A DNA stretch of 50,984 bases, from the NCBI GenBank assembly GCA_025463555.1, contig JAODAS010000029.1, forward strand, positions 1-50,984, read 5' to 3'. This DNA comes from Schumannella sp. (GTDB lineage Bacteria; Actinomycetota; Actinomycetes; Actinomycetales; Microbacteriaceae). The notes beneath the pieces are model-generated. The model was not told where the DNA came from and made no database searches. It saw only the letters and a list, made by a program, of their open reading frames with translations. This document shows, piece by piece, positions 2,901-50,975 of this stretch (within the stretch, counting starts at the first letter, position 1; each line of letters opens with the position of its first letter). Both the position numbers and the translations under genes were made by a program.

Positions 2901-3344
2901 GTGCAACGGTCAGCAGCCCGCATCGTCGTCGTGAACGAGGACGGACAAACCCTCCTGTTCCGCGGCGGCGACCCAGGACGCCCGGAGGCGGGGACGTGGT
3001 GGTTCACGCCGGGCGGCGGCGTCGAGGGCCGCGAGACCCTTATCGACGCAGCGCGCAGAGAGCTTAGCGAGGAGACTGGCCTAGAGGTTGCGCGCCCGCT
3101 CGGACCCATCTACCAGCGCGATACCACGTTCGAGTTCACCGGTGAGACTTTCCAGCAACACGAGGTCTACTTCTACGTTGTCGTGCCGACCTTCGAGATC
3201 GACACACACGGCTGGACAGTCCTCGAACGGGCCGTCATGCGCGAGTCCCGGTGGTGGTCGCTGCAAGAGATCCAGACCACCGACGAGATCGTGTACCCGG
3301 ACAACCTGGCCGCTCTGCTCATAGAAATCTTCGAGAGACACTAA
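2901..3344 (+). CDS. Nudix hydrolase
   Basis: Nudix box 'GGGVEGRETLIDAARRELSEETGL' (GX5EX7REUXEEXGU). GTG start. Confidence 0.9.
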   Translation: MQRSAARIVVVNEDGQTLLFRGGDPGRPEAGTWWFTPGGGVEGRETLIDAARRELSEETGLEVARPLGPIYQRDTTFEFTGETFQQHEVYFYVVVPTFEIDTHGWTVLERAVMRESRWWSLQEIQTTDEIVYPDNLAALLIEIFERH

Positions 3345-4008: not shown

Positions 4009-4722
4009 ATGTGCGGACGTTTCGCGATGGACGACAAGGTGAATGCGGCGATAACGGAATTCGTCGAGTCGACCGGCAAGATGCCGGAAGACTGGCGCCC
4101 GGGCTGGCAGCCGAGCTGGAACATCGCTCCCACCGAGAACATCCCGCTGCTGTTCGAATCCGGCAAGGGCGAGGCGGAGCCGCAGATCCGTTTCGAGCCG
4201 GCCTACTGGTCGCTGGTGCCCAGCTGGTCGAAGACGTTGAAGCTGAAAGCATCCACCTTCAACGCTCGAGCTGAGGATATGGCCGAGAAACCATTGTGGC
4301 GGGGGCCTGTGAAGTCGCACCGGGCGATCGTGCTCGCGAATGGCTACTACGAATGGCAGGGCCCCAAGGGGCACAAGATCCCGTACTTCATCCGGTACCC
4401 CGACGATCAAGTGATGGGCTTCGCGGGCCTCTACTCGTGGTGGGCCGACCCGTCCAAGGATCGCGACGATGATTCACGTTGGCGGCTGACGGCCACAATT
4501 GTCACCTCCGACGCGGTGCAGACTCTCGCAGACATTCACGACCGGAACCCGGTCATCCTTCCGCAGCGGATGTGGGAGCACTGGATCGATCCGACCGTGG
4601 CCGGCGACCAGGCCCTCGTTGACGAGGCTGTCCGTGCGGGCGTCGCCGAAACTGAATCGCTGCGGTTCGACCAGGTGGGACCCGGGCGCGGTGATGGGCC
4701 GGAGCTCATCCAGCCAGCCTGA
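4009..4722 (+). CDS. SOS-response-associated peptidase (SRAP/YedK family, abasic-site crosslinking)
   Basis: Starts 'MCGRF' (catalytic Cys2). Also has 'SWNIAPT', 'FNARAE' and 'ANGYYEW'. The track ORF begins 12 codons earlier at 3973. Confidence 0.85.
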   Translation: MCGRFAMDDKVNAAITEFVESTGKMPEDWRPGWQPSWNIAPTENIPLLFESGKGEAEPQIRFEPAYWSLVPSWSKTLKLKASTFNARAEDMAEKPLWRGPVKSHRAIVLANGYYEWQGPKGHKIPYFIRYPDDQVMGFAGLYSWWADPSKDRDDDSRWRLTATIVTSDAVQTLADIHDRNPVILPQRMWEHWIDPTVAGDQALVDEAVRAGVAETESLRFDQVGPGRGDGPELIQPA

Positions 4723-7594: not shown

Positions 7595-7876
7595 TCACTG
7601 GCAGGAGTCGCATTGAAGGTCCTCCATCGGGTCGATCGGGACGAGGTAGAGCTCGGGTGCGGGCTGGTAGTGCTGGTCCCCCGGCTCGTCACCGTGCGCG
7701 TGTGCATCCAGCCACATATTGGCTGCTGCTGGCTCTCCCAACGCCCGGAGGATCCCGGCTAGCGCTTCGGCTTCTCGGCATCCCAAGGTCGAGGCAACAT
7801 CGTGCGCGAGGGTCACGTCGGAAAAGACCCCACAGAACCGGGTGACGTCTTCGGTGTCCGTAATGAGCGTGCTCAT
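7595..7876 (-). CDS. Small strongly acidic protein (93 aa) with C-terminal 'VPIDPMEDLQCDSCQ' tail
   Basis: Trimmed to 'MSTLITDTEDV...'. About 17 D/E against 3 R/K. It is the first gene after hairpin cassette R1. Its tail is shared with the product of 50443-50739. Confidence 0.6.
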   Translation of the reverse strand: MSTLITDTEDVTRFCGVFSDVTLAHDVASTLGCREAEALAGILRALGEPAAANMWLDAHAHGDEPGDQHYQPAPELYLVPIDPMEDLQCDSCQ

Positions 7877-7903
7877 CGTTCTCTTCTCTCTCTCAACCAA
7901 CCG

Positions 7904-8068
7904 TTTTTCTTTGCCTTCCGGCGAGAGAAATCGATAGTGAGCGGGAGCGCCGAGAGTGCCGGGTCGTGGAATACCGGAGGGAGCGGAGCGAGTGAGGATG
8001 TGCCGCGAAAGCCCGGAACGGCAGGCGCGGAGCGAGCTACGGTGATCGGCCGGAAAGGTCAAAGAAAG
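7904..8068 (-). repeat. Hairpin cassette R1 (long imperfect hairpin, copy 1 of 4)
   Basis: Homologous to 10646-10806, 12446-12598 and 50257-50421. Outer stem CCTT(T)CCGGC/GCCGGAAGG is extended by T-run/A-run pairing. Conserved core is CTTTCGCGGCAcATCCTC...CCGGTATTCCACG. It ends 27 nt before ATG 7876. Confidence 0.8.
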
Positions 8069-8195
8069 CAGAGCGTTCGCAGCGCCGCGTAGCGGCTCCG
8101 TTGGCGGGCGGCCTCCGTGCCGCAGCGCCCCGCTGTCCACCACTCCCCCGTGCATGCGTTCCCCCGAACGGTTGCTTTCACGCTGGATTCATTCC

Positions 8196-8213
8196 GATAT
8201 CGGAGTGATATCA
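8196..8213. promoter_or_regulatory. GATATC-type operator (GATATCGGAGTGATATCA) upstream of cassette R1
   Basis: This 18-mer is identical to 10923-10940 and near-identical to 9271-9291 in the parA promoter region. Confidence 0.5.
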
Positions 8214-8232
8214 AAATGGATCCATGGTGCTG

Positions 8233-8568
8233 CTAGATCCCGTTTTCGTCCTTGAGGATTTCAAGGCCGCGCCGCAGCGCCCGTAGGGCGGTGGCGTGCT
8301 GGCTGCGCTCTTCTGCTCGCGCTACATCGGTCAGCAGCGCCGGTAGCTCGAGGTCTGGGTACCGGATGAGCAGCGTCTTCGCGACGTCGTCCGGCCATTC
8401 TGTTGCCGGCGTGGCCGGTGGCGTGGGCACCTTCTTGCGCGCCGGCCGCGCCGGCTGGAGGCTCGCCTGTGCGATCGGTGCCTCGGTGGGCCGCTCGGCG
8501 GCCTCGCCGAATGCTTCGATGGCAGCCTCAGTTGCCGGGTCGATCGTGGGCCTTCTTTTGATTGCCAT
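8233..8568 (-). CDS. ParG/CopG-like ribbon-helix-helix centromere-binding or repressor protein
   Basis: 111-aa product. The C-terminal 'KTLLIRYPDLELPALLTDVARAEERSQHATALRALRRGLEIL' fits strand-helix-helix. Its ATG shares one base with the parA stop (TAATG coupling). Confidence 0.55.
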   Translation of the reverse strand: MAIKRRPTIDPATEAAIEAFGEAAERPTEAPIAQASLQPARPARKKVPTPPATPATEWPDDVAKTLLIRYPDLELPALLTDVARAEERSQHATALRALRRGLEILKDENGI

Positions 8569-9200
8569 TACGCCATCAACTCCGCTGCGAATTCCTGGAT
8601 CTCTGCTCGGGCCTTGGGGTTGTTCCATTCCACGACGCCGAGTCCTTCACCAATGACGTCGCGGTATGCCTTGCGTTCGTAGACCACCGTCTGCAGGGGG
8701 TGAAGTGCCGGGTAGTCCGACAGGTACTCCCCCGCGTCGGTGCGCTCAGTCACGCCCGGGTTGGTGGGGACCTGCGTTAGCAGGCTCCGCACAACCAGCT
8801 CCGGGTTGAAGTCGCGTACCTGTTCGACCAGCTCACTCATGTGCGGAAGCGTGTCGAGGTCGAGCTGTGACGGCCGGACGGTCACGACCATCTTGTGCGC
8901 GGCCGTCATGCCGGTGCGCATCTCTTTGCTGTCCTTGCCGGCGACGTCGACGATGACGTATCCGTAGCGCGCGTCGAGGTCGAGCAATGTCTCTCGGATG
9001 TTGCCGAGCTTTTCGATGCAGGCGATAGCGGGCGTGACGCCTGCGGCTTCACGGTCGGCGTGCCAGCGAGCGGCGGACCGCTGCGCGTCTGCATCGACGA
9101 CTACGACGTCTTCGCCCTGACGGGCCAGTTCGGCCGCGAGATTGATGGCGATGGTGGATTTGCCAGCGCCGCCCTTCTGGCTCCCTACGAGGATGATCAT
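8568..9200 (-). CDS. parA: ParA/Soj-type partition ATPase
   Basis: Deviant Walker A 'GSQKGGAGKST', 'VVVDAD', 210 aa. Confidence 0.9.
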   Translation of the reverse strand: MIILVGSQKGGAGKSTIAINLAAELARQGEDVVVVDADAQRSAARWHADREAAGVTPAIACIEKLGNIRETLLDLDARYGYVIVDVAGKDSKEMRTGMTAAHKMVVTVRPSQLDLDTLPHMSELVEQVRDFNPELVVRSLLTQVPTNPGVTERTDAGEYLSDYPALHPLQTVVYERKAYRDVIGEGLGVVEWNNPKARAEIQEFAAELMA

Positions 9201-9210
9201 GATTGCAGTC

Positions 9211-9299
9211 TACTTTCACTTTGATATCAGAACAGTAGCGAAACGCCATCAAAGCGATATCACTATGAAAGTGATAGCAGAGTGATATCAGTTTGAAAG
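9211..9299. promoter_or_regulatory. parA promoter/centromere-like cluster of TGATATC motifs
   Basis: Motifs at 9222-9230 (TGATATCAG), 9254-9264, 9271-9280 (GTGATAGCAG) and 9281-9291 (AGTGATATCAG). Flanking CTTTCA/TGAAAG arms are inverted. The cluster is directly upstream of ATG 9200. Confidence 0.5.
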
Positions 9300-9374
9300 C
9301 ATGACAGTTGGCGGGGGAGTGTGAGGGGGAGTCCCCCTCACTCGCGGCGATCCGGCTGCGATGATGGGGGAGCG

Positions 9375-9407
9375 GGGCCCCGACCTACTTTCTCTAGGTC
9401 GGGGCCC
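9375..9407. terminator. 12-bp stem hairpin downstream of the ArdC unit
   Basis: GGGCCCCGACCT-N9-AGGTCGGGGCCC. A second hairpin, GTGAGGGGG-AGT-CCCCCTCAC, lies at 9321-9341. Neither has a clear U-run. Confidence 0.35.
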
Positions 9408-9492
9408 TTCACCGTGGCGGGGGAAGTCGCCCCGGTGTCTGTAGCGGCAGGCGCTCCACGATTGCGGGAACGGTGGCAGGCTCTCGGCCGGG

Positions 9493-9693
9493 CTAGTCGG
9501 CGTCGATCCGCTGCAGCGTGTCGACGATGGTCACCACGTCGGGGCTGTCGATCGTGATGGTGCTGACCAGCACGTAGCCAATTCGGGCGTGGCCGGTGAG
9601 GTCTTCCTGGCGGTAGCTGAGTTGCCGGGCACGCGTGGCGGGTTCGTCGTCCTTGGTGACGTTGGTCTGGATCGTCTGGATGCTGTTGGCCAT
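9493..9693 (-). CDS. Hypothetical small protein (66 aa) downstream of ardC
   Basis: ATG is preceded by GGAGAG. Composition is not shadow-like. No motif recognised. Confidence 0.5.
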   Translation of the reverse strand: MANSIQTIQTNVTKDDEPATRARQLSYRQEDLTGHARIGYVLVSTITIDSPDVVTIVDTLQRIDAD

Positions 9694-9732
9694 GTGTCTC
9701 TCCTGTCTGGGATGGTGGGGGAGGGCCGCCGG

Positions 9733-10620
9733 TTAGGCGGCGTCTTCCGTGTCGGCGTCTTCGTCGTCAGGGTCGAGAATTTCCGCGATCTGGTGGGCGG
9801 CGCGCAGGACGCGGGTCGCGGTGGACTTGATCAGGTCGGCGTCACCCTCGGACCATCCGGCGATGTAGCCGACGCTGTAGGCGCTGGTGTCGAATCCGAC
9901 CATGCCGGCGACGACGTAGGCGACGCTCTCGGCTTCGGTCTCCATCAGGCCGCGGTGCTCGAGGTATTGCGCCAGGTCCTCGGTGTGGCCCAGGATCACG
10001 TGCGCGGTCTCGTGGATGAGGGTCTTAGCGGTGTGCTCGGGGCTGAGGTCGGCGTCGATGACGACGGTCATCTCTTCCGGGTCGCTGTACCCGTTCTTCG
10101 TCCCCTGGATCGGGCGGAACTCAACGGTCCAGCCTTCCTCGACGAGGTAGGTAGAGAGAGCATCGACGATGCCGAAATCGTCGGCGCCTGTGAGCTGGGT
10201 GGTGAGAGTTCCGGCGTCCTGTGCGCCCTCGATGAGGTCGGTCTGTCCGATGTCGAACACGGAGAGGATGGGGAAGCGGGCGACGCGCTTTTCTACCTCG
10301 TCGCCGTTCTCGTCCTCCTCGGTAATCTTCTTGGTGCTGTAGCCGAAGATCCGGATGGCCTTCTCGCCCTTGCGTACCTGGCGGCCGAGCGCCTGCCACT
10401 TGCGGAATCCGGCCACCTGGGACGCCTCGGGCATCTGGGACAGGATCAGCAGAAGGTTGTTCAGTGAGTAGGCGTGGAACGCTTTCGCGAAGTCGAGGAA
10501 CGCCGTCCACCGGTCGGACTCGCGCAGCTGCTCCACCTGGTCGCTGATCGAGTTGTGCAGCGCTTCGGCCTGAGCCTTCTTCTCTTCGATGGTCTTGCCG
10601 GGTCGGCGGGTCTTGGTCAT
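9733..10620 (-). CDS. ardC: ArdC-like antirestriction protein (N-terminal ssDNA-binding domain plus zincin HExxH protease domain)
   Basis: 'FHAYSLNNLLLILSQ...GFRKWQALGRQVRKGEKAIRI' matches the ArdC-N/DUF1738 pattern. C-terminal 'LIHETAHVILGH' is an HExxH motif. Confidence 0.75.
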   Translation of the reverse strand: MTKTRRPGKTIEEKKAQAEALHNSISDQVEQLRESDRWTAFLDFAKAFHAYSLNNLLLILSQMPEASQVAGFRKWQALGRQVRKGEKAIRIFGYSTKKITEEDENGDEVEKRVARFPILSVFDIGQTDLIEGAQDAGTLTTQLTGADDFGIVDALSTYLVEEGWTVEFRPIQGTKNGYSDPEEMTVVIDADLSPEHTAKTLIHETAHVILGHTEDLAQYLEHRGLMETEAESVAYVVAGMVGFDTSAYSVGYIAGWSEGDADLIKSTATRVLRAAHQIAEILDPDDEDADTEDAA

Positions 10621-10645
10621 TGCTCTCTCCCTGAGTGGACAACTG

Positions 10646-10806
10646 TTTTTTGTGCCTTCCGGCGAGAGAAATCGATAGAGAGCGGGAGCGCCGGAGCCCC
10701 GGGTCGTGGAATACCGGAGCGAGCGCAGCGAGTGAGGATATGCCGCGAAAGCCCGGGGTGTAGGCGCGGAGCGAACTACGATGACCGGCCGGAAAGGTCA
10801 CAAAAG
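10646..10806 (-). repeat. Hairpin cassette R2 (copy 2 of 4)
   Basis: Same architecture as R1, with inner stem CCCCGGG/CCCGGGG. It ends 25 nt before the ardC ATG at 10620. Confidence 0.8.
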
Positions 10807-10922
10807 ACGTCCGAAAGAGCTGTGCCGCGAAGCGGCTCCGCTTCGATCAGGTCAGGGTGGCGGCTGCGCCGCAGCGCCATTTCTGCGCCCGCTGGGCGCT
10901 GCTTCCATGGTGCTTTCAGTCT

Positions 10923-10940
10923 GATATCGGAGTGATATCA
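10923..10940. promoter_or_regulatory. GATATC-type operator upstream of cassette R2
   Basis: GATATCGGAGTGATATCA, identical to 8196-8213. The flanking 'GCTTTCA' is also shared. Confidence 0.5.
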
Positions 10941-10989
10941 CCCCGACTAAGGAGGGGCCGGCCTCCGTGCCGGGCCTGGGGGAGCGAGC

Positions 10990-11012
10990 GGCGGGTGCGG
11001 GGGACACCCGCC
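10990..11012 (-). terminator. Hairpin after the ParB-like gene
   Basis: GGCGGGTG-CGGGGGA-CACCCGCC, 13 nt past the stop at 11025. Confidence 0.45.
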
Positions 11013-11024
11013 GCTCATCGTTCC

Positions 11025-12422
11025 CTACTCGTCGAGGTCGTTGTCGTCCTCTTCGTCGGCCAGGGGAGCACTGCTCGTCCCGGCGTTGTCGATCACGATC
11101 TGCTCGACTTCCGACAGAGCGTATCCCCAGGTGGCGAGCTGGGCCAGGTAAGCGGCCTTGGTCGCCTCGGGGTAGCGCCAGGTGCTCTTGCTGGTGGCGG
11201 ACTCGATGCCGCCGAGAACAACGGCGAGGCTGACGTGCTGTGCCTTGGTGGGGGACTGCTCGACGTGCGCGGCGAGTTTGTCGTCGTAGTAGCCGCCTCG
11301 CTCGATGCCGAGCAGCTGGTGGGCCAGTTCGTTGCCGTTGGCCGCTGCGCTGCCCACGTCGCGGCGTTGGATGGTGAGTCCTAGCGCGATTACCTTCGCC
11401 GCGTCCTTCGGCAGTGTCTTGCGGGTCAGGAACTCGGCCAGCCATGCGCGCCGCACCGTTTCCGCGGATGCCCACGCCTTGTTGTTGGCGATCAGCGTGC
11501 GCCGTTCGGCTTTCTGCTCGTCGGTCATCGGGCCGCTGTTGGAGCCCTGGCCGCTGGCTTTGGTGAAGCCTGCGGCCTTCGGGTCGCTGAGGAAGTAGCT
11601 GATGTTCGGCTCGCCGTCGAGGTAGACGCGGACGAACACGGCACGCCCTTCGGCGTTCTCGATGTGCTCCGGGGTGACCCGCTCGCCTTCGGCGGTGGTC
11701 AGCTCGCGGATGCTGATGTAGTCGGTGTCGTAGTAGCCGCGGTCATGGTCGAGGATTTCGTAGCCGCGGCCGCGCAGCTCATCCTCGGTCTGTGCCTTCA
11801 CGTGCGCCCGGGCGCGGTCGTCGCGGGCGCGCTGGGCCGCGTGGGTGAACTGGGCCGGGTCGTTGATCGCGATTTCGATCAGGTCGGCGCGGGTGGCCTC
11901 GTCGTCCTCGAACTCGATCAGCGTTGCGGCCTGGTCGAGGGTCAGCTGGTGCTCCTGGATCGCGGAGGCGGCGACGGCGTTCTCCGCGACGGCCAGGCCG
12001 CTCTTGACCACGGCCTGCTTGGTGCCGGTGCGCTTGGCGATTGCGGCGGGGCTGAGTCCTTCGAATGCGAGCTGCTGGAACGCTGCGGCCCGGTCGCCGT
12101 CGGTGAGGGCTTCGCGCTGGTCGTTCTCGACCATCTGCTGCACGATGCGCTCTACGGTGGCCTCGTCCGCCTCGACGATGTAGGCGGGGATGCTGGTCAG
12201 TCCGGCCTCGCGGGCTGCGAGGGTGCGTCGCTGGCCTGCCCGAACCAGAACGTTGCCCTGGGCGTCGCGTCGGGCGAGAACGGGCGTCAGAACGCCGTTC
12301 TCGCGGATGCTGGCGATGAATTCCTTGGTCAGCGGGGCGCTGGGTCGCACGTTCGCTTCGATGATGATCGCGTTGGGGTCGATGTGCTCGACGGTTCCCT
12401 GGCTTGCGGTAGTTGTGTTCAC
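11025..12422 (-). CDS. Orphan ParB/Srx-domain (ParB-like nuclease/CTPase fold) protein, KorB-like
   Basis: 'GVLTPVLARRDAQGNVLVRAGQRRTLAAREAGLTSIPAYIV' contains the ParB N-terminal GxRR box. 465 aa with an acidic tail. GTG start. Not adjacent to parA. Confidence 0.8.
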   Translation of the reverse strand: MNTTTASQGTVEHIDPNAIIIEANVRPSAPLTKEFIASIRENGVLTPVLARRDAQGNVLVRAGQRRTLAAREAGLTSIPAYIVEADEATVERIVQQMVENDQREALTDGDRAAAFQQLAFEGLSPAAIAKRTGTKQAVVKSGLAVAENAVAASAIQEHQLTLDQAATLIEFEDDEATRADLIEIAINDPAQFTHAAQRARDDRARAHVKAQTEDELRGRGYEILDHDRGYYDTDYISIRELTTAEGERVTPEHIENAEGRAVFVRVYLDGEPNISYFLSDPKAAGFTKASGQGSNSGPMTDEQKAERRTLIANNKAWASAETVRRAWLAEFLTRKTLPKDAAKVIALGLTIQRRDVGSAAANGNELAHQLLGIERGGYYDDKLAAHVEQSPTKAQHVSLAVVLGGIESATSKSTWRYPEATKAAYLAQLATWGYALSEVEQIVIDNAGTSSAPLADEEDDNDLDE

Positions 12423-12445
12423 GGTTCTCTCTCCCGATCAACTGA

Positions 12446-12598
12446 TTTTTTTGCCTGTCTGGCGAGAGAAATCGATAGAGAGCGGGAGCGCCGGAGTGCC
12501 GGGTCGTGGAATACCGGAGCGCAGCGAGGATATGCCGCGAAAGCCCGGAACGTAGGCGCAGAGCGAACTACGATGACCGGCCAGACAGACGAAAAAAG
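12446..12598 (-). repeat. Hairpin cassette R3 (copy 3 of 4)
   Basis: Outer stem changed to CTGTCTGGC/GCCAGACAG, two compensatory pairs relative to R1/R2. The apical loop has a 10-nt deletion. It ends 23 nt before GTG 12422. Confidence 0.8.
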
Positions 12599-12653
12599 CG
12601 ACAAGGACAGCGCCGCGCAGCGGCTCGAATCAGGGTCAATCAGTCGCCGCCGG

Positions 12654-14735
12654 CTAGGCGGCGTCTCCGAGGTATTGCCAGCGGCTCTCGGGACTGAGAG
12701 CGCCGACTATGACGAGTTCTCGAGCGCTTCGGTGGTCGGCTCGGCGGTCGGCGGATCGAGGGTAGCGGGGCCAGATTCGTTCGCCCGGCGCGTCGGCCTC
12801 GAATAGCGGTCGGCTCGATGCATTTCGGCGTCGTGGACGCATCCTGGGGGAGGCGTTCATGGTGGTGAGCTCGGCTTGCCACCATGCCCATACTTCGCGT
12901 TCGGCTCGATATCGTTCGGCTCGATCGAGAAGGGTTCCGGCCACGCCGAGGATGCGAGCTGCCTGGTCTCGGAGATCTCGCGTGGCTCGGGCCCATCCTT
13001 CTCGATGCTTGACGATGAGGCGATGCCGGCGCAGGCGGCTGAGGATCCTCGTGGTGTGGCGGGTACCGGTGCCGAGGAGTCGCGCAGCGGTCTCTACGGT
13101 GAGTGTGGGGTGCTGGCGAAGGATGGCGTAGAGCTTCCCGGCGAGGTGACCAAGGCCGGCGCGGGTGAAGAGATCGTGCCGGCTGTCTGTTAGTTCGTCC
13201 TCGAGCTGGGCTACTTGGACGGCGCGAGCGTTGAAGAGGTCGGCCGGGGGGCGGGGGTTATCTAGAGGTTGTGACCGGACTGTGTCAGAGGTTGTGGAAA
13301 GTGTGAGGGTCAAGCGCCATTCGGCGGCGTTGCCGCCGTCGGTGGTGGTGACCTTCTGCACGTATCCGTCGCGTGCGAGCCGCTGGAGGGCGTCTGCGGC
13401 CGTGGTGCGGCCGAGCCCGACCATCAGGGCGAGGTCGCGGATCGAGGCCGCTACGACTCGTTTTCCGGTCTGCAGGGTGAGGTAGGCCAGGGCGGTCAGG
13501 ATGGAGCGCTCGGAGAGCGCGGCTTCCGTCCGTCCCCAGCGTCCGGGGGCGACGCGGAATCGCGTCAGGAGGTCGTCAACGTCGCGCACGATGGCGTCGA
13601 GCTCTGTCAGGTCGCGGGGCTCCCGCGCGGCCGGGAGAGGCCGTTGTACGGCCGCGTATTGCTGCGCCTTGGCCCACTGGCGTTCGAGCCGTTCGCGCGC
13701 CTCCGCGGGGGAGCGGCGGCGGCGGGTGCCGCGGCCGGTGTTCTTGGTGCGGTAGTGCTCCATCCCAGGGGCGGTCTTGGCAGCGTGCTCGACGTCGGCC
13801 AGGGACCACCCGGCATTAGCGGCCGCCAGGAGGCACATGAACCCGGTCCATGATGGGTTGCTGCCGCCGTCGATCGTGGCCATGTGCGCGGCGCCGGCGG
13901 CGGTGAGCTGTCGGTGCGCGCGGTGTGAACGGTCGACGGGGCCGGATGGTGCGCTCTCAGCGGCTCTCAGAGCGGGTTTCCGCTCATCGAGCACCACGGC
14001 GAGGGCGATCAGTTTGTCAGGAACGATCCTGCTGGCCGTGAGCGCGTCGAGGCTGCCTCGGATGATGACCGAGCTGGACCCGTCGCGGTGAGGCGACAGC
14101 GGCGGGCGCGCGGCGCCCTCCCGCACGTTCAGCAGCATTCCGTGGTCGAGGGTGCGATAGTTCGCGCGGGCAGCGCGGGCGAGGGCCGCCACGACGTCGG
14201 CCGTGGCTCCGCCCGGCACGGCGATCCAGATGTGGCGGCCGCCGGTTCCCGAGGACTGGCAGAGCACGTAGGCGATAGAGAGTTCGTCGAGGATGCCGGC
14301 GAGGGCGTCGGCCTCGTCGACGGCGCGCTCCATGAGCTCGGCGTCGACGCCGTGCTTGTCCTTGCCGTCGAAGTCGAAGCAGAGCAACCGGAACAAGCCC
14401 GCATCGTCGGCCAGGCGGATGCACCACGGCGTTGTGGGTGCCTGCGGAGCGACGCGGTGGAAGCTGGGGTAGCTGTTCTCGTCGAGACGGCCGTAGGCGT
14501 CTCGCTTCATGACGCGCACGCGATCGCGTGGGCTGATTCGGCGGGTCAGCTCCCAGGCGTCAGCAACGTCGGCGGACACGCTCAGAGGCCTGTAGCCGTG
14601 CAAAACGTCGTATTTGCCACTATCCGGGGCTATGATGGCCTCACTCCTTGAGGATTCGTTCTTGAGGGTGCACTGAAGCCCCCGGCTGGTAACCGGGATA
14701 TTCGGTGGGACTAGCTCGAACCTCGAGGCCGGCAA
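12654..14735 (-). CDS. Prim-Pol (archaeo-eukaryotic primase-type) replication protein with C-terminal winged-helix repeats
   Basis: AEP motifs 'LLCFDFDGKD' (DxD) and 'SGTGGRHIWI' (sGxGxH). Several MarR-like wHTH segments, for example 'LALMVGLGRTTAADALQRLARDGYV'. Confidence 0.6.
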   Translation of the reverse strand: MPASRFELVPPNIPVTSRGLQCTLKNESSRSEAIIAPDSGKYDVLHGYRPLSVSADVADAWELTRRISPRDRVRVMKRDAYGRLDENSYPSFHRVAPQAPTTPWCIRLADDAGLFRLLCFDFDGKDKHGVDAELMERAVDEADALAGILDELSIAYVLCQSSGTGGRHIWIAVPGGATADVVAALARAARANYRTLDHGMLLNVREGAARPPLSPHRDGSSSVIIRGSLDALTASRIVPDKLIALAVVLDERKPALRAAESAPSGPVDRSHRAHRQLTAAGAAHMATIDGGSNPSWTGFMCLLAAANAGWSLADVEHAAKTAPGMEHYRTKNTGRGTRRRRSPAEARERLERQWAKAQQYAAVQRPLPAAREPRDLTELDAIVRDVDDLLTRFRVAPGRWGRTEAALSERSILTALAYLTLQTGKRVVAASIRDLALMVGLGRTTAADALQRLARDGYVQKVTTTDGGNAAEWRLTLTLSTTSDTVRSQPLDNPRPPADLFNARAVQVAQLEDELTDSRHDLFTRAGLGHLAGKLYAILRQHPTLTVETAARLLGTGTRHTTRILSRLRRHRLIVKHREGWARATRDLRDQAARILGVAGTLLDRAERYRAEREVWAWWQAELTTMNASPRMRPRRRNASSRPLFEADAPGERIWPRYPRSADRRADHRSARELVIVGALSPESRWQYLGDAA

Positions 14736-30357: not shown

Positions 30358-32016
30358 TCAGTCGCGCAACATCGGAATGCGCAGGCCTCGCTCGCGAGCA
30401 ATTTCCGCAGCATGTGCGTAGCCCGCATCGACGTGGCGCATCACGCCGGTTCCAGGATCGTTGGTCAGCACGCGCTCAATCTTCTCGGCGGCCAGCGGTG
30501 TCCCGTCGGCCACGACCACTTGTCCGGCATGGATGCTGCGCCCGATTCCGACACCGCCGCCATGGTGCAGTGACACCCAAGTCGCACCGGACGCCGTGTT
30601 CAGCAGCGCGTTGAGCAGCGGCCAGTCGGCGATGGCGTCCGACCCGTCCTTCATCGCCTCCGTCTCCCGGTAGGGCGAGGCAACGGAGCCCGAGTCGAGG
30701 TGGTCACGCCCGATAACGAGTGGCGCCGAGAGCTCGCCAGCGGCGACCATCTCGTTGAACTTAAGTCCCGCGAGGTGCCGCTCCTTGTATCCCAGCCAGC
30801 AGATCCGCGCGGGCAGCCCCTCAAAGTGGACCTTCTCGCCCGCCTGGGTGATCCAGCGGTGGAGCTTGTGGTCGTCGGGGAACAGGTTCAAGATCGCGCG
30901 GTCAGTCGCCGCGATGTCGGCCGGGTCTCCGGAGAGCGCCGCCCACCGGAACGGGCCGCGGCCCTCCTCGAACTGCGGACGGATGTAGGCGGGAACGAAT
31001 CCGGGGAAGTCGAACGCGCGCTCGTACCCGCCGAGCTGCGCCTCGGCGCGGATGGAGTTGCCGTAGTCGAAGACCTCGGCGCCCGCATCCTGGAACCCGA
31101 CCATGGCCTCCACCTGGGTCGCCATCGACCGGCGTGCGTCCTCGGTGAACCGCTCGGGCTCGGCGGCGGCGCGGTCGCGCCACTCGTCGACGTCGTAGCC
31201 GACGGGCAGGTAGGAGAGCGGGTCGTGCGCGCTGGTCTGGTCGGTCACGATGTCGATCGCGACGCCGCGGCGGAGCAGCTCGGGGAAGACCTCCGCCGCG
31301 TTGCCGACGACTCCGATGGAGACCGCCCGGCGCTCCTCCTTAGCGGCCAACGCGTGGGCGACGGCAGCGTCAAGGCCATCTGACAGTACATCCAGGTACC
31401 CGTGATCGACGCGACGCTGCAGCCGGGTGCGGTCCGCGTCCACGATGAGCACCGCGCCGCCGTTCATGGTGACGGCGAGCGGCTGCGCTCCGCCCATCCC
31501 GCCGCAGCCTCCGGTCAAGGTGAGAGTGCCGGCGAGCGTGCCATGGAAACGCTTGTCGGCGATCGCGGCGAAGGTCTCGTAGGTGCCCTGGAGGATGCCC
31601 TGCGAGCCGATGTAGATCCAGGATCCGGCGGTCATCTGGCCGTACATCGTGAGCCCGAGCGCCTCCAGCCGGCGGAACTCGGGCCACGTCGCCCAGTCGC
31701 CGACGAGGTTGGAGTTGGCGATGAGCACGCGCGGTGCCCACTCGTGGGTGCGGAACACGCCGACCGGCTTGCCGGACTGCACGAGCAGCGTCTCGTCGGC
31801 CTCGAGGTCGCGCAGGGTCGCGACGATCGCGTCGAAGGCCTCCCAGCTGCGGGCCGCGCGGCCGGTGCCGCCGTAGACGACGAGGTCGTCCGGGCGCTCG
31901 GCGACGTCGGGGTCGAGGTTGTTCATCAGCATCCGCAGCGGCGCTTCAGTCTGCCAGCTCTTCGCGCTGAGCTCCGTGCCGCGCGGTGCTTGCACGGTGG
32001 TCTTCGTGTCGATCAT
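30358..32016 (-). CDS. hutU: Urocanate hydratase
   Basis: 552 aa. '[31 protein letters not shown]', '[13 protein letters not shown]' (NAD-binding), '[19 protein letters not shown]'. Confidence 0.95.
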
Positions 32017-47601: not shown

Positions 47602-49245
47602 TTATCTTCCGATGCCGCGGTCTTGCTCGGGTCCGGTCGCGGGCTTGTAGGGCTTAGCGGGTTCGATCTTTGTCGGCAGGGGTGACCCGGGACGGGGAGC
47701 GCTGAGGCCGGTCTGAGCAATGCGGACCGCCTCGGCCGTGCGCTCGTCGACGTCGACGGGCGCGGGGTTCTGATCCTTCCGGGGAACCTCGGGCAGCCGT
47801 GATGCGACGGTGGCCATCTGCGAGTTCAGGGTGCGGGAGATTTCCGCTGCGCGAGCCTCGTCCCCGATGGCCTTGTGCATGTCGATGATCGCCACGGTGA
47901 GCCGTGCGAGCTGGCGCATCAGGATCGCCTCGGCCATCGTCCCTTGACCCTGGCTGGCGGCCTGCATCAGCAGCATGGCGGCGCCGCCGGCGCTGCCCAT
48001 GCTGACCTTCTTCGGCTTCGAGGTGTGCGCCTTGATGTGCGCCGACCGGGCCAGCTCACGGGAGGTTGCAGCGAGCGGTCCGGGCGTCGTCTCGACGCGC
48101 TGCGACCAGGCGGCGAACGCACCGGCCGTGTCGCGTGCGACGTGCGCCCACGCTGCCCGATCGCCCGGTGGGACGCTGCGCAGCTCGTCGCGCATTCGCC
48201 GCATGTCGTCGGAGTATTTCTGCCACAGTTCCGGGGCCGGCTCTGTCTCTTCACGGCCCGGCGCGACCGGCCGGTACTGCCAGGGGTTGCGGCTGGTGGC
48301 CTTCCACTCGTCGACCGCGCCCTGCGCCGCCTGCGGGCTGTCGGACCATCCCTCGCGGAGCCTCGGGAGGGTCAGGTCGCGGGCGAGCCGGCCGCCGCCG
48401 TACCAAACCGGAGGGGTGCCGTGCTCGGTGCGCAGCGCGACCGAGTAACCGGCGACAACGTCGTCACGACCGGCCGCGAAACGGGGCCGAATGAGAACGC
48501 CGGCGCGACGTACCCGACGTACAAACTCGCCCTCGTCGATCGACGCGGCCGCCGCAGCACGCACGCTCCGTTCGAGCCGGTGCGCGTCGACCTCGACGGC
48601 GCCGGTACGGCGTGCGCGCTCCTGCTCGGCGGGCTTGATGCCCCGCTCCCCCAGGCCGTGCTCACGGCTGCTGAGCTGCTGCAGCCCGTACTCGCGCTCG
48701 AGGTCGCGGCAGGTGTCCTGCGCCTTCTTGAAGTCGTTGTGGGTGCTCGCTTTGGTGCCGTCCTCGCGCACCAAGGAGACCGCGATGTGGACGTGGTCGT
48801 TGCCGTTGGTCGACAGACCGTGACGGACGGCGACCCACCGGCACTCGGCCTTGCCGCTGGCCTCGGTGAATCCCATCCGGTCCACGAAGTCTTGCGCGAT
48901 CGCGCCCCACTTCTCATCGGACAGCTGGCCCTCGCCGGCTCGTAGTGACAGGGAGCAGTGCCACACATCTGCCGGCGTCGTGGTCGAGTGAACCGCGCCC
49001 GTCTCCGGGTCGGTGATGCTCTGTGTGCGCGTTACTTCGACGCCCAGCGCGACGCGCGGCTCGTCGAGGTCCTTCGCGATCGCCAAGGCCGTCTCACGAT
49101 CGAGCACACCGTATCCGTGCATCGTGACGATGGCGGAGTTGCCAGCGACGAGGTGCTGTTCCTCGTGTTCGTTCGAGCGTCCGGGACCGGCCAGGTAGAC
49201 CATGAGCCCACCCATCCGGCTCCCCCGGGTGATGTTCGGCATCAT
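47602..49245 (-). CDS. Relaxase/mobilisation nuclease (MOBQ/MOBP-type relaxase domain)
   Basis: N-terminal relaxase fold. 'VWHCSLS' and the histidine triad 'HGLSTNGNDHVHIAV'. ATGA overlap with the mobC stop. Confidence 0.85.
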   Translation of the reverse strand: MMPNITRGSRMGGLMVYLAGPGRSNEHEEQHLVAGNSAIVTMHGYGVLDRETALAIAKDLDEPRVALGVEVTRTQSITDPETGAVHSTTTPADVWHCSLSLRAGEGQLSDEKWGAIAQDFVDRMGFTEASGKAECRWVAVRHGLSTNGNDHVHIAVSLVREDGTKASTHNDFKKAQDTCRDLEREYGLQQLSSREHGLGERGIKPAEQERARRTGAVEVDAHRLERSVRAAAAASIDEGEFVRRVRRAGVLIRPRFAAGRDDVVAGYSVALRTEHGTPPVWYGGGRLARDLTLPRLREGWSDSPQAAQGAVDEWKATSRNPWQYRPVAPGREETEPAPELWQKYSDDMRRMRDELRSVPPGDRAAWAHVARDTAGAFAAWSQRVETTPGPLAATSRELARSAHIKAHTSKPKKVSMGSAGGAAMLLMQAASQGQGTMAEAILMRQLARLTVAIIDMHKAIGDEARAAEISRTLNSQMATVASRLPEVPRKDQNPAPVDVDERTAEAVRIAQTGLSAPRPGSPLPTKIEPAKPYKPATGPEQDRGIGR

Positions 49246-49640: not shown

Positions 49641-49879
49641 TGCCCCTCCCCCGTCCTTCTGGCCCAGCGCAGCGAACCCGCCTCTGGCGGGGACCATACG
49701 ACCAGTATGCCGGTGCCGGACGCGACAGTCCAGCACCGCAAGCCAGTTACCCCGGGTAACTGTATAGCTTGCTCCGTATGGGGCTCCGCCCGAACGGTGC
49801 GTAAGTATCGGTGAGGCAGCACCGGGAGGGTGCCACGTTACGCCTAGTGGAGCGGTTGCGGTCCTGTTAATCTGAGGCC
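49641..49879. other. Candidate oriT region (divergent intergenic region upstream of mobC)
   Basis: Non-coding 239 bp containing the perfect inverted repeat AGTTACCC-C-GGGTAACT (49744-49760). The nic site is not identifiable by eye. Confidence 0.4.
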
Positions 49880-50188
49880 ATGAGCGACGTACAACTGGAC
49901 CCACAGGAAGCCGCCCGGAAAGCGCGGGCCATCATCGAGGCCGAGCAGAACGCGCGCGTGCGCTCTGTGGAAGAACTCGTTTCTGCCACCAACGTTTTCG
50001 ACGCTGCGGAGCAGGCCGTCAAGGATGCCGCCGCCGCGCACGACAAGGCCTGGAACGCCGCCCTTGCCGCGGGATGGACTGAGAAGAACCTGCGTGAGAT
50101 TGGCGCCCGTGCGCCCGGTCAGTCCGCGCCCCGCGCGCGTAAGCGCCGTGCTGCCGCTGCATCTCCCGCCCAGAGCATTGAAGGGTGA
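49880..50188 (+). CDS. Hypothetical small helical protein (102 aa)
   Basis: Coding-like, Ala/Glu-rich helices with a basic tail. Followed by a strong terminator. Confidence 0.5.
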   Translation: MSDVQLDPQEAARKARAIIEAEQNARVRSVEELVSATNVFDAAEQAVKDAAAAHDKAWNAALAAGWTEKNLREIGARAPGQSAPRARKRRAAAASPAQSIEG

Positions 50189-50211: not shown

Positions 50212-50250
50212 GAACAGGCCCCGCCGAGCGTCGCTCGGTGGGGCCTGTTC
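50212..50250 (+). terminator. Long hairpin terminator
   Basis: GAACAGGCCCCGCCGAGCG-T-CGCTCGGTGGGGCCTGTTC, with one G-T wobble, followed by a T-rich stretch. Confidence 0.7.
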
Positions 50251-50256
50251 GTTGGG

Positions 50257-50421
50257 CAACTCCGTTGCCTTTCGGCTAGGTGATGGTACGCACCGTTCCT
50301 CTCTGAGCAAGAGCTTTCGCGGCATATCCTCACTCGCTGCGCTCGCTCCGGTATTCCACGGTCTCTTGCTCATTCACCCCCGGCGCTGTTTCGGCAAGAG
50401 CGCCGAAAGGCAAATGGGTTG
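50257..50421 (+). repeat. Hairpin cassette R4 (copy 4 of 4, opposite genomic orientation)
   Basis: Same conserved core, CTTTCGCGGCATATCCTCACTCGCTGCGCTCGCTCCGGTATTCCACG. Outer stem is TTGCCTTTCGGC/GCCGAAAGGCAA. The inner stem is replaced by GAGCAAGAG/CTCTTGCTC. It ends 21 nt before ATG 50443. Confidence 0.8.
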
Positions 50422-50442: not shown

Positions 50443-50739
50443 ATGAGCAGGATCGTCACCTTGTACGTGGAGTCCGGATCCGCAACAAGCGACAAAACCA
50501 GAGCAGCAATGGACAGTGTCGGCATCGGCTACGAGCTGGTGCCGGTAACGGTCGACGACTACCCCCTGCAGGCGGTCGGAACGTCCTACGCGACAGCACC
50601 GGTCACGGTCGTCGACGGGATCAGCTGGGACGGGTACCGGCCCGACCTGATCGCACGGCTCGCCGCCGAGCAGGCGCTTGAGGCATACGAGGTGCCTGTC
50701 GATCCGATGGACGAGCTCTACTGCGAAAGCTGCCAGTGA
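50443..50739 (+). CDS. Glutaredoxin/NrdH-like fold protein lacking CxxC, with C-terminal 'VPVDPMDELYCESCQ' tail
   Basis: 'IVTLYVESGSATSDKTRAAMDSVGIGYELVPV...APVTVVDGISWDGY' follows the NrdH topology, but 'SGSATS' replaces the CxxC motif. The tail is shared with the product of 7595-7876. Confidence 0.55.
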   Translation: MSRIVTLYVESGSATSDKTRAAMDSVGIGYELVPVTVDDYPLQAVGTSYATAPVTVVDGISWDGYRPDLIARLAAEQALEAYEVPVDPMDELYCESCQ

Positions 50740-50975
50740 TGAGCGCCGCATACCTCCGCCGGCACCGCGTCACCGTGCCCGCAGAGCTGCGCTCCTACAC
50801 ACCGGAACAGGCCGCGACCGCGACCGGGCTAACCCTCGACGATCTGCGCCGGATGCGCGAAACCGGTCAAGGACCGGCATACGTCACGATCGGCAAAAGA
50901 ACCATCCGCTACATCCGCAACGACCTCGACCAATGGACGGCCGATCAGCGCTCCACAATGTCCGCCCACTCGTAG
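50736..50975 (+). CDS. Helix-turn-helix (AlpA/excisionase-like HTH_17) protein
   Basis: 'YTPEQAATATGLTLDDLRRMRETGQGPAYVTIGKRTIRYIRNDLDQW'. ATGA overlap with the previous gene. Confidence 0.6.
   Translation: MMSAAYLRRHRVTVPAELRSYTPEQAATATGLTLDDLRRMRETGQGPAYVTIGKRTIRYIRNDLDQWTADQRSTMSAHS

Follow-up and report, generated by a model that had tools for sequence, protein, structure and literature searches.

Four long-hairpin cassettes in a 50,984-nt stretch of Schumannella sp. DNA (contig JAODAS010000029.1, referred to in full as the window) share their tip with a site upstream of an M.EcoGIX-type methylase gene in the plasmids F and pESBL-EA11, and sequence comparison supports placing them in one family with the class 3 promoter from which M.EcoGIX is expressed in pESBL. 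We think it likely that each cassette is a single-strand-DNA (ssDNA) promoter of the Frpo/ssp kind within this family.

A reading of the sequence alone had placed four cassettes in the window, and all of them, 153–165 nt in size, are present, R1–R3 on the minus strand and R4 on the plus strand (Table 1). They are co-oriented with their downstream genes, as had been claimed and as is also true of R4, and the distance of 21–27 nt given between cassette end and start codon corresponds to gaps of 27, 25, 23 and 21 nt. With up to 3 mismatches allowed, there are four occurrences of the 19-nt core GCTTTCGCGGCATATCCTC against 0.01 expected, and CTCCGGTATTCCACG is found exactly at the same four places. 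Every stem that had been named can be located: a T-run/A-run base, an outer stem, ATCGTAG/CTATCGAT, GCGCC/GGCGC and an inner stem. Between copies, the outer stem alternates between CCTTTCCGGC/GCCGGAAGG and CTGTCTGGC/GCCAGACAG, and the inner stem between CCCCGGG/CCCGGGG and CCGGG/CCCGG. R4 has the apical core in common with R1–R3, while its inner and outer stems differ in sequence yet still pair, the inner stem being swapped in a fully compensatory way for GAGCAAGAG/CTCTTGCTC. The apical loop of R3 is shorter than that of the other copies, by 8 nt rather than the 10 nt first proposed.

Table 1 Cassettes, their predicted signals and neighbouring features in the window.
Feature	Position	Strand	Remarks
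Gene for 93-aa acidic protein	7595..7876	-	served by R1; no Pfam match
R1 long imperfect hairpin cassette	7904..8068	-	62.4 bits
R1 apical core module	7965..8015	-	GCTTTCGCGGCACATCC, pyrimidine-rich loop, then CGGTATTCCACG
R1 predicted -10, TACGGT	8038..8043	+	3' arm of plus-strand hairpin, non-template arm
GAGCCGC-NN-GCGGC hairpin with T-rich tail	8084..8098	-	just upstream of R1; likely terminator
ArdC-like gene	9733..10620	-	served by R2
R2 long imperfect hairpin cassette	10646..10806	-	79.3 bits
R2 apical core module	10705..10755	-	
R2 predicted -10, TACGAT	10777..10782	+	plus-strand arm
GAGCCGC-NN-GCGGC motif	10824..10838		upstream of R2; likely terminator
ParB-like gene	11025..12422	-	served by R3
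R3 long imperfect hairpin cassette	12446..12598	-	65.8 bits
R3 apical core module	12505..12547	-	
R3 predicted -10, TACGAT	12569..12574	+	plus-strand arm
GAGCCGC-NN-GCGGC motif	12612..12626		upstream of R3; likely terminator
MobA/VirD2-type relaxase gene	47602..49245	-	
Candidate oriT	49744..49772	+	inverted repeat CAGTTACCCCGGGTAACTG then GTATAGCTTGC; predicted from the usual repeat-then-nick order
Near-perfect 19-bp hairpin	50212..50250	+	between orf 49880-50188 and R4; likely terminator
R4 hairpin cassette	50257..50421	+	90.2 bits
R4 predicted -10, TACCAT	50283..50288	-	16 nt downstream of -35-like TTGCTC
R4 apical core module	50313..50360	+	
NrdH/glutaredoxin-like (50443-50739) and HTH_17 (50736-50975) genes	50443..50975	+	served by R4

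The sequence-only reading had each copy forming a single long imperfect hairpin on the sense strand, and such a fold is obtained for all four, whether as RNA or DNA and on either strand. Folding z-scores range from −0.8 to −6.5 across copies; R1 is the weakest, which counts against an ssDNA promoter. The stems covary among the four copies, as had been described, and also across ~150 relatives, and this covariation has statistical support. In 24 full-length Microbacteriaceae cassettes, 20 of the 51 pairs change on both sides, compared with 12.8 ± 1.8 after shuffling (0/500), and paired cells amount to 81.7%, falling to 40–46% when partners are slid. Among 128 family members, double changes are seen in all nine pairs of the stem adjoining the core, whose covariation score of 0.363 compares with 0.104 for shuffled (0/500) and at most 0.094 for slid partners. 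The two arms of one instance are complementary to each other, whereas arms taken from different instances are not (−28.6 versus −16.5 kcal/mol), own arms pairing better in 143 of 147.

With a covariance model trained on the shared apical module plus the adjoining stem, the window copies score 62–90 bits; F has a single strong site (53988–54080, 56.6 bits) and pESBL-EA11 likewise one (54604–54696, 57.4 bits), each 85–86 nt upstream of an M.EcoGIX-type DNA methylase gene. In the published account (Wen et al. 2025, PMC12672017), a class 3 ssDNA promoter, reported to be conserved in F, is formed by the hairpin 5' of M.EcoGIX, and its start sites, from 5'-RACE in early transconjugants, agreed with the hairpin-promoter prediction. 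The F and pESBL sites are equated with this promoter by position only; the family element in F is probably ssp3 (Wen et al. 2025, PMC12672017; Fraikin et al. bioRxiv 10.64898/2026.01.09.698686). The pESBL/F promoter and the cassettes are both long imperfect hairpins. They have in common the apical module (the F and pESBL sites are only 2–3 positions off the consensus core), a similar stem beside it with a TTGAAG/TTGACA-like hexamer, and a comparable placement, ~85 nt ahead of a leading-region gene and on the strand for which the transferred strand is the template. The outer arms, however, are unrelated in sequence, and the actinobacterial copies differ in how far the −10 lies from the tip and are mostly without a −35. 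There are four copies per plasmid here, R4 being on the other strand, compared with one in F and pESBL, and the host is a high-GC Gram-positive. Within the 19.5-kb leading region of F the model matches the methylase-upstream site only, and not Frpo1, Frpo2 or ssp2, and a blastn search with R2 gave no F-type plasmids among the 271 plasmid matches listed.

Plasmids and elements of Actinomycetota, Bacillota and Pseudomonadota carry the same apical ~45 nt (GCTTTCGCGGCATATCC-loop-CGGTATTCCACG), as do two inovirus-like contigs, and the GC content of the replicons sharing the core runs from 31% to 70%. This tip is nearly identical in members of many bacterial phyla and in filamentous phages as well, although the exact-pattern scan itself accounts for part of the near-invariance of the core in the large set. 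Across phyla the downstream genes, at a median of 86 nt, encode NrdH, ParB-like proteins, ArdC, DUF932, N6/N4 methylase, DprA, SSB and RadC and are of leading-region types, and in genomes sense-side genes dominate beside the element. The core stands without a co-oriented downstream gene ~215 bp past repC of the IncQ-type pCCK381 and in a 3.1-kb MobV plasmid. In the inovirus-like contigs it is intergenic and upstream of rep, and the packaged strand carries it in the promoter-bearing orientation. A phage-like group with capsid and portal genes, in which genes follow the element in the opposite sense, and several Leifsonia loci with convergent cassette pairs count against an ssDNA promoter. The cassette is also modular, its tip having been exchanged in Mycetocola.

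Promoter-like hexamers are distributed unevenly between the arms. At offsets 26–29, TANNNT is present on the antisense arm in 78 of 147 instances and on the sense arm in about two; its restriction to the gene-antisense arm at a fixed offset is predicted if a promoter is rebuilt by folding of the template-strand hairpin. As DNA, the antisense strand folds more stably in 146 of 154 instances (mean 4.9 kcal/mol), and mismatches in the variable stem are of the antisense-strand G–T wobble type 58 times and of the reverse type 21 times. A −35-like TTGACA or TTGCxC lies beside the core in many phyla, and that of R4, TTGCTC, is the complement of 50305–50310. The predicted −10 of R2 pairs with TCGATAG (10672–10678) via a one-base bulge, between internal loops. 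Counting against the promoter are the fixed G–T pairs of the core, which favour folding of the sense strand, the lack of a recognisable −35 in R1–R3, and the absence of TANNNT from the actinobacterial offset in Enterobacteria and other Proteobacteria.

The GAGCCGC-NN-GCGGC hairpins directly upstream of R1–R3 likely terminate the preceding genes, so that the downstream genes would need a fresh transcription start; no consensus double-strand promoter was found in 7700–12800. The candidate oriT lies between mobC (start ~49641, minus strand) and the plus-strand orf 49880, and from its arrangement we infer that the plus strand is the transferred strand. R1–R3 would then be transcribed from the transferred strand as template, and orientation relative to the relaxase and oriT fits transferred-strand transcription for R1–R3, pARLON1, pMPC6-47K and F. 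R4, which adjoins the candidate oriT, and recurrent oriT-adjacent copies in other actinobacterial plasmids face away from the relaxase operon. If the promoter-bearing hairpins of R1–R3 are on the transferred strand, those of the R4 type are on the non-transferred one, which counts against an ssDNA promoter, and R4 cannot work in the same way as R1–R3 during entry. The strand opposition of R4 had not been foreseen.

Among the roles proposed in the sequence-only reading, the Frpo-type promoter is best supported, by homology to the M.EcoGIX site, the antisense-arm TANNNT, the probable transferred-strand template and the leading-region genes. If this mechanism operates in actinobacteria, the plasmid would enter the recipient as ssDNA and the gene-antisense strand (for R1–R3 the plus strand, presumed to be transferred) would fold into the long hairpin. 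Its 3' arm would bear the −10 (TACGAT or TACGGT; TACCAT in R4) and, in R4 and many relatives, also a −35 (TTGCTC, TTGCGC or TTGACA) directly adjoining the conserved tip, and pairing with the 5' arm would rebuild the promoter duplex. As the −10 helix is short, with a one-base bulge and internal loops on either side, it should open easily. RNA polymerase would then read the 5' arm from loop to base and on into the gene, from a predicted start giving a leader of ~45–50 nt with a GGGAGAGAG ribosome-binding site. The transcript would provide early ArdC, ParB-like and other establishment proteins, and probably also prime complementary-strand synthesis. In double-stranded DNA the sense arm offers only TATCGA or TCTATC, without the final T, so the rightward promoter would be lost.

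It is possible, though we lean against it, that the cassettes serve mainly to prime synthesis of the complementary DNA strand, acting as a single-strand initiation signal or minus-strand origin at which the tip recruits RNA polymerase or primase on ssDNA and DNA polymerase extends the short RNA, downstream expression being secondary or incidental. Frpo-type promoters are themselves reported to prime DNA synthesis, and the cores that lack a co-oriented gene in pCCK381 and the MobV plasmid, or that lie beside rep on the packaged strand of the inovirus-like contigs, would suit such a role, as would copies on both strands (R4, the Leifsonia pairs) if both need priming. The pESBL homologue nevertheless drives M.EcoGIX mRNA, and in the window and at ~90 genomic loci the element keeps its fixed short distance upstream of establishment genes bearing a ribosome-binding site. 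Priming and promoter activity are mutually compatible, and the two explanations differ mainly in emphasis. The structured 5' mRNA leader that had also been suggested, which would affect stability, translation or attenuation and be transcribed from an ordinary upstream promoter, fares poorly and is very unlikely: the terminator-like hairpins less than ~20 nt upstream leave no room for a promoter, with no promoter motif, the position-specific TANNNT on the antisense arm would be superfluous in an RNA element, and the antisense DNA is the more stable strand. Sense-strand RNA does fold into the hairpin (z −1.6 to −5.4), the fixed core G–U pairs are compatible with that strand and a ribosome-binding site follows closely, but Rfam yields no matching family at E values up to 10, small plasmids and inoviruses carry the element without a downstream gene, and the published start sites for the homologue agreed with the prediction for a hairpin promoter (PMC12672017).

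An ordinary double-strand element, either an antisense-arm promoter directed away from the gene or a palindromic operator bound by a plasmid regulator, seems quite unlikely. Although the −35/−10-like hexamers are readable in duplex DNA too, and the phage-like group has genes on the antisense-arm side, in the window and its relatives that side holds only the 3' end of the preceding gene and a terminator. Separate GATATC operator-like repeats nearby show that the region is regulated, yet a plasmid-specific regulator cannot explain a core common to replicons of such different GC content across phyla, and neither promoter nor operator needs 150–190 nt of arm complementarity kept by compensatory change. 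Least credible, and highly improbable, is a selfish MITE-like palindromic repeat or a set of bidirectional terminators without a role in establishment. In its favour, the cassette is multicopy, palindromic and modular, with an exchangeable tip (Mycetocola); against it stand the fixed position and orientation relative to start codons, the lack of target-site duplications or transposase association, the consistent link to one functional gene class across phyla and an A-run rather than a U-run after the 3' side of the hairpin on either strand.

As ssDNA promoters, the cassettes would share their working principle with the class 1 elements of F and ColIb-P9 (Frpo/ssi1-3/ssp1a,b; Masai and Arai 1997), with which they have no sequence relationship. 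There, a transferred-strand hairpin with imperfections near the −10 rebuilds the −35/−10, transcription runs towards the base into leading-region genes, second-strand synthesis silences the promoter and the RNA is usable as a primer; we propose the same for the cassettes. They also resemble the sso of rolling-circle plasmids, a long imperfect, strand-specific hairpin used on ssDNA intermediates, but show no evident ssoA hallmarks (RSB, or a terminal loop with CS-6 TAGCGT); on the antisense strand their loop reads GAGCGCAGCGAG, and, unlike sso, these elements precede genes on a T4SS/relaxase conjugative plasmid. The minus-strand origin of f1/M13 is a hairpin on the packaged strand that host RNA polymerase recognises on ssDNA as a promoter for the primer, a likeness extended by the cassette core beside rep in the two inovirus-like contigs. 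We know of no sequence similarity between the f1 origin and the core, and for the plasmid cassettes the RNA would also be mRNA.

Our literature searches agree with the earlier statement that no equivalent has been described in actinobacterial plasmids. The main new result is the recurrence of the apical ~45 nt across phyla, which the sequence-only reading did not anticipate. We speculate that this conserved tip may serve RNA polymerase as a docking or nucleation module on ssDNA.

The four cassettes R1 to R4, each a long imperfect hairpin upstream of a gene, lie at the coordinates that the sequence-only reading had assigned to them. Every one of them folds into a single hairpin as described there, all of the stems it named are present in the sequence, and each cassette ends 21–27 nt 5' of a start codon with a GGGAGAGAG-like ribosome-binding site. 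The placement of the four copies therefore stands, with the correction that R4 lies on the plus strand; the loop deletion in R3, given as 10 nt, measures 8 nt. A search across the window for more cassettes of this kind returned none beyond the four. A 19-nt string, GCTTTCGCGGCATATCCTC, occurs four times in the window at no more than one mismatch (0.01 expected), and CTCCGGTATTCCACG is matched exactly at the same four sites. R4 shares with R1–R3 only the tip (the apical ~45 nt of the hairpin, or core) and the overall layout; in place of the CCGGG/CCCGG of the others, it has GAGCAAGAG/CTCTTGCTC as inner stem. The genes downstream encode an acidic 93-aa protein (R1), ArdC (R2), a ParB-like protein (R3) and an NrdH-like protein with an HTH_17 protein after it (R4). 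Within ~20 nt upstream of each of R1–R3 is a GAGCCGC-NN-GCGGC hairpin with a T-rich tail, and upstream of R4 is a 19-bp near-perfect hairpin; from their sequence these look like terminators of the preceding genes. The loop string ACTCGCTGCGCTCG (R2 10722-10735; R4 50332-50345) is presumably identical to a sequence immediately downstream of the ColE1/pUC origin, close to the primosome assembly site, and this may be coincidence.

Coordinates of the cassettes, their predicted -10 elements and the transfer features in the window
Feature	Position	Strand or arm	Sequence or basis	Setting
R1 cassette	7904-8068	minus strand	sequence and fold	
R2 cassette	10646-10806	minus strand	sequence and fold	
R3 cassette	12446-12598	minus strand	sequence and fold	
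R4 cassette	50257-50421	plus strand	sequence and fold	
R1 predicted -10	8038-8043	antisense arm	TACGGT	
R2 predicted -10	10777-10782	antisense arm	TACGAT	
R3 predicted -10	12569-12574	antisense arm	TACGAT	
R4 predicted -10	complement of 50283-50288	antisense arm	TACCAT	
MobA/VirD2 relaxase gene	47602-49245	minus strand		
Candidate oriT	49744-49772		perfect inverted repeat CAGTTACCCCGGGTAACTG (49744-49762), then GTATAGCTTGC	between mobC and divergent small plus-strand gene

The distribution of the cassette was determined using sensitive blastn with R2 as query against 72,556 plasmids, which matched 271 plasmid records. Close relatives align along the entire cassette, while only the central ~54 nt, at 88–96% identity, is found in Burkholderia, Pseudomonas (including pWW0), Stenotrophomonas, Vibrio, E. 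coli, Pasteurella pCCK381, a 3.1-kb Providencia plasmid, Cutibacterium and Arthrobacter. An exact-pattern scan for the core, with one genome per species, returned at least 120 loci. Among the matches listed, these fall in many families of Actinomycetota; in the Bacillota (Lachnospiraceae, Oscillospiraceae, Paenibacillus, Anoxybacillus, Parageobacillus and Alicyclobacillus); in alpha-, beta- and gamma-Proteobacteria and Desulfocurvus; and in a few metagenome-assembled genomes of Saccharibacteria, Bacteroidales, Spirochaetales and Vulcanimicrobiota, whose assignments need caution. In all, the family's tip recurs in hundreds of elements, spread over three or more well-sampled phyla.

The tip reads GCTTTCGCGGCATATCC, a pyrimidine-rich loop, and CGGTATTCCACG. 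From base to loop, its constant order is a variable stem, a CTT bulge, TCG/CGA, a C-A mismatch, GG/CC, a C-T mismatch, ATATC/GGTAT and the pyrimidine-rich loop, which often contains CGCTGCGCTC. That the core hardly varies in the large set is forced in part by the exact pattern used for collection, and the real range of the core is visible from the blastn identities, from the copies in the plasmids F and pESBL (2–3 substitutions) and from a Mycetocola plasmid (NZ_CP026950.1). The cassettes of this last plasmid (about 12680-12830, 14832-14993, 16022-16180 and 18980-19139) have an outer part like that of the window's copies, including CTACGAT and a GCCAGACAGGC base, with a diverged tip, ATTTTCGGACGCGGTCGCAGGCTCCCTTATTTCGCCCGAAAT, and a covariance model of the element run on these copies did not detect them. 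As the outer cassette is kept and the tip replaced, the tip looks like an exchangeable module. We did not find it described: Rfam 15 at gathering thresholds gave no match in the whole window, and at E up to 10 nothing overlapping the cassettes or the pWW0 copy; a description of the element or its tip was not found in the searchable literature, where the core strings retrieved unrelated primers only, and the core is absent from the supplements of Samuel et al. 2024. This near-universal and apparently undescribed tip is the main interest of the cassettes.

The sequence-only reading had staked its claim on statistically supported covariation among homologues, and such covariation is present. With 128 sites aligned under the guidance of the model, each of the nine pairs of the stem beside the tip shows double changes, with a covariation score of 0.363 against 0.104 in shuffled alignments (0 of 500) and at most 0.094 with slid partners. 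The long hairpin in its entirety is instance-specific: an arm hybridises with its own partner at -28.6 kcal/mol and with the arms of other instances at -16.5 kcal/mol, the own partner being better in 143 of 147 cases. When the two actinobacterial subtypes were mixed, RNAalifold recovered no more than the invariant core, as the outer arms were misaligned, and a subtype-only alignment with an explicit structure was used instead; across 24 full-length Microbacteriaceae cassettes, 20 of 51 pairs carry compensatory changes (12.8 ± 1.8 when shuffled). The observation is real and statistically supported.

A covariance model was built and searched with, as the sequence-only reading had suggested, and it connects the cassettes to a mapped promoter. 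The model scores R1–R4 at 62–90 bits. An unfiltered search of F's 19.5-kb leading region (NC_002483.1) gave a single significant site, 53988-54080, at 56.6 bits and 85 nt upstream of a DNA methylase gene; the runner-up scores 10 bits. In pESBL-EA11 (NC_018659.1) there is likewise a single site, 54604-54696, at 57.4 bits and 86 nt upstream of the M.EcoGIX methylase. Wen et al. (2025, PMC12672017) describe the hairpin 5' of M.EcoGIX as a new "class 3" ssDNA promoter, report a start site from 5'-RACE in early transconjugants that agreed with the hairpin-promoter prediction, and state that it is conserved in F. Equated by position only, our model match would be this published promoter. F also has a promoter named "ssp3", of strength equivalent to ssp2 (Fraikin et al., bioRxiv 10.64898/2026.01.09.698686), which by elimination is probably the same element as our F match. 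One covariance model covers R1–R4 and the F and pESBL sites, with the homology confined to the tip and adjoining stem. At least 5000 enterobacterial plasmids carry the F copy, as do 3412 of 5426 complete E. coli genomes. Frpo1, Frpo2 and ssp2 of F gave no model match, which sets the family apart from classes 1 and 2; sequence similarity to class 1 (Frpo/ssi) was seen neither by the model in the F Frpo regions nor by blastn with R2, which gave no F-type matches. The cassettes have the form of known leading-region ssDNA promoters, being long, imperfect, intergenic and set among leading-region genes, and they would be, by sequence, actinobacterial and multicopy additions to that kind.

The predicted promoter elements lie on the antisense strand, taken relative to the downstream gene. 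Many members have a -35-like hexamer in the stem immediately beside the tip: TTGACA in Lachnospiraceae and bacilli, TTGACC in Burkholderia, TTGCAC or TTGCGC in actinobacteria and TTGCTC in R4. At 26–29 nt from the tip, TANNNT is found on the antisense arm in 78 of 147 instances and in ~2 at the same place on the sense arm, and nothing consistent was seen for a -10 on the sense 3' arm. In the window copies, the arms opposite the predicted -10 read TATCGA or TCTATC and lack the final T. The predicted -10 is on the 3' arm of a template-strand hairpin, and the -35 is clear in R4, which has TTGCTC-N16-TACCAT on the minus strand, and in many relatives. No -35 is recognisable in R1–R3; promoters of actinobacteria such as mycobacteria and streptomycetes normally lack one. 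This arrangement matches the Frpo design, in which the gene's template strand folds and the 3' arm supplies the non-template promoter elements. The 5' arm of the folded template strand would then be transcribed from loop to base and onward into the gene. In R2 the -10 sits in a 3+4 bp helix with a bulged A inside and internal loops on both sides, so it should melt easily. Two A/T-containing patches in the tip (ATAT and a bulged antisense AAG) are about one helical turn apart and upstream of the -35; as a suggestion only, they may occupy the place at which UP elements are contacted by alpha-CTD. Scanning 7700-12800 for the strict sigma-70 consensus, which is uninformative for actinobacteria, returned 0 sites, and a canonical -10 at standard spacing could not be placed in Proteobacteria, Firmicutes or inoviruses.

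Fold energies also point to the antisense strand, which is the stabler as ssDNA in 146 of 154 instances, by a mean of 4.9 kcal/mol. Among variable stem mismatches, 58 become antisense G-T wobbles and 21 are of the reverse kind, while the fixed G-T pairs of the core favour the sense strand; as core and variable stem disagree, the wobble test alone is not decisive. The option of a structured mRNA leader, also raised by the sequence-only reading, is unlikely. Its ssDNA-promoter reading is supported by the homology to a mapped promoter, the strand-specific -10 and the context. A single-strand origin of the ssoA type would carry RSB and the CS-6 (TAGCGT) loop motif, and neither hallmark was seen in the loops, judged by inspection. 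We also rejected a sigma-54 promoter, as CCACG-N5-TTGCA resembles TGGCACG-N4-TTGCA but lacks the GG, and to our knowledge actinobacteria are without sigma-54. Other candidates (attC sites, group II intron domains, known ribozymes, IncQ ssiA/B and IncN CUP repeats) do not appear to fit in sequence or distribution.

Among the matches listed, genomic loci have a sense-side gene with a ribosome-binding site downstream of the element at a median of 86 nt. These genes encode NrdH/glutaredoxin (17), ParB-like proteins (15), ArdC (8), DUF932 (4), N6/N4 DNA methylases (4) and, in smaller numbers, DprA, SSB, RadC and others, which is the classic leading-region and anti-defence repertoire. When clustered, the sense-side genes form large and coherent groups and the opposite side is mostly noise. 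ArdC and ParB-like proteins, which the sequence-only reading had called leading-region or anti-defence types, recur downstream of the element across phyla.

The window is a conjugative plasmid of Microbacteriaceae type, with relaxase, coupling protein and T4SS genes. It has relatives in Mycetocola, Microbacterium, Herbiconiux, Cryobacterium, Curtobacterium and Clavibacter, and a Humibacter metagenome-assembled genome has near-identical copies of the cassette. A urocanase gene at 30358-32016 points to metabolic cargo between transfer modules. Within the window there is also a second, GATATC-based repeat family (8196-8213, 9213-9299 and 10923-10940; GATATCGGAGTGATATC; palindromes TGATATCA...TGATATCA), with copies upstream of R1, R2 and a ParA-like gene; by its sequence it could be an operator, or a centromere-like site, at which a plasmid regulator or a partition protein acts. 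The inverted repeat and GTATAGCTTGC of the candidate oriT presumably resemble MOBQ/pTi-type nick regions. From the usual order of repeat then nick, we infer that the + strand would be transferred and the relaxase gene would enter last. If the nick lies 3' of the 49744-49762 repeat on the + strand, R1–R3 would be on the transferred strand and R4 would not; R1–R3 and their genes would be templated by the transferred strand and point towards oriT, which is the arrangement of the F leading-region genes. Three complete plasmids, pARLON1, pMPC6-47K and F, have elements and downstream genes that face oriT from the side opposite the relaxase, the orientation required for transcription from the transferred strand.

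Several copies do not fit this arrangement. The promoter-bearing hairpin of R4 would be on the retained strand if R1–R3 are on the transferred strand. In nine Arthrobacter-type loci (one cluster), the element is ~290 nt from a divergent mobC-like gene, and four Arthrobacter-type loci have an HTH_17 gene after it. Six Leifsonia loci (L017, L069, L072, L086, L105 and L119) contain convergent element pairs 2–5 kb apart, with a ParB-like gene ahead of one element and a conserved ~100-aa ORF ahead of its partner; as some of these loci are chromosomal, they may be integrated elements. It is possible that R4-like and paired copies have a donor-side role, where the transferred strand is peeled off beside oriT, or prime the other strand. 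In phage-like contigs (L133–L185; 5–14 kb, with HK97-type capsid and portal genes; for example, the core of L146 at 4513-4558), the genes run opposite in sense to those of the plasmids, 33 against 5, and so tip orientation alone does not dictate gene direction. In this group an A-G mismatch gives TTGACG on one arm and TTTACG on the other.

The core is also found in replicons that are single-stranded for other reasons. In the IncQ-type pCCK381 it lies ~215 bp past repC, and both there and in the 3.1-kb Providencia MobV plasmid it is without a co-oriented gene after it. The two cores (3004-3050 in pCCK381, L003; 2858-2904 in the Providencia plasmid, L002) sit in a common ~350-bp multi-hairpin module with recurring TCGCTGCGCTCCCTT motifs, which adjoins the IncQ-type repC in pCCK381 and precedes mobV in the Providencia plasmid; the E. 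coli and Vibrio matches, which have the same 88.9% identity, may be what is left of this module within resistance regions. Of 53 IMG/VR contigs that carry the GC-rich core, two are inovirus-like (7.1 and 7.3 kb, 31% GC, with G2P-type Rep, Zot and integrase). In both (L149, 4939-4975; L150, 2184-2229), the core is intergenic, just upstream of rep, and its promoter-bearing orientation is that of the gene-sense strand, the one that filamentous phages package. The core may serve here as a minus-strand origin; the position and polarity are those expected of one, which argues that the tip works on ssDNA and can serve in priming as well as expression.

A wider reading is possible without being probable: the ~45-nt tip may be a pan-bacterial ssDNA start module, recognised only when single-stranded by a universally conserved host machine, which in this reading is most likely RNA polymerase. 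At GC contents between 31% and 70%, the tip would be reused by conjugative and mobilisable plasmids, by ICE-like elements and by filamentous phages, and transcription and second-strand synthesis would begin at it, with lineage-specific promoter arms beneath. As a corollary, copies such as R4, next to oriT but on the strand that is not transferred, could act as sensors in the donor and fire as the transferred strand peels away.

ssDNA promoters account for the ability of plasmids to express anti-defence genes in the first minutes after entry. Demonstrations have so far been confined to enterobacterial IncF and IncI plasmids, and their wider spread is described as unknown in recent papers. Four members of one such family are now placed in a high-GC Gram-positive conjugative plasmid. 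As a concrete marker that can be searched for, the tip would point out leading regions and the transferred strand in unannotated plasmids and ICEs. It also offers a defined target, 45 nt long, for work on the ssDNA features that RNA polymerase or another host factor recognises, and a route to early-expressed anti-defence genes outside Proteobacteria. It would make both ssDNA-promoter recognition and leading-region annotation outside Enterobacteria directly testable.
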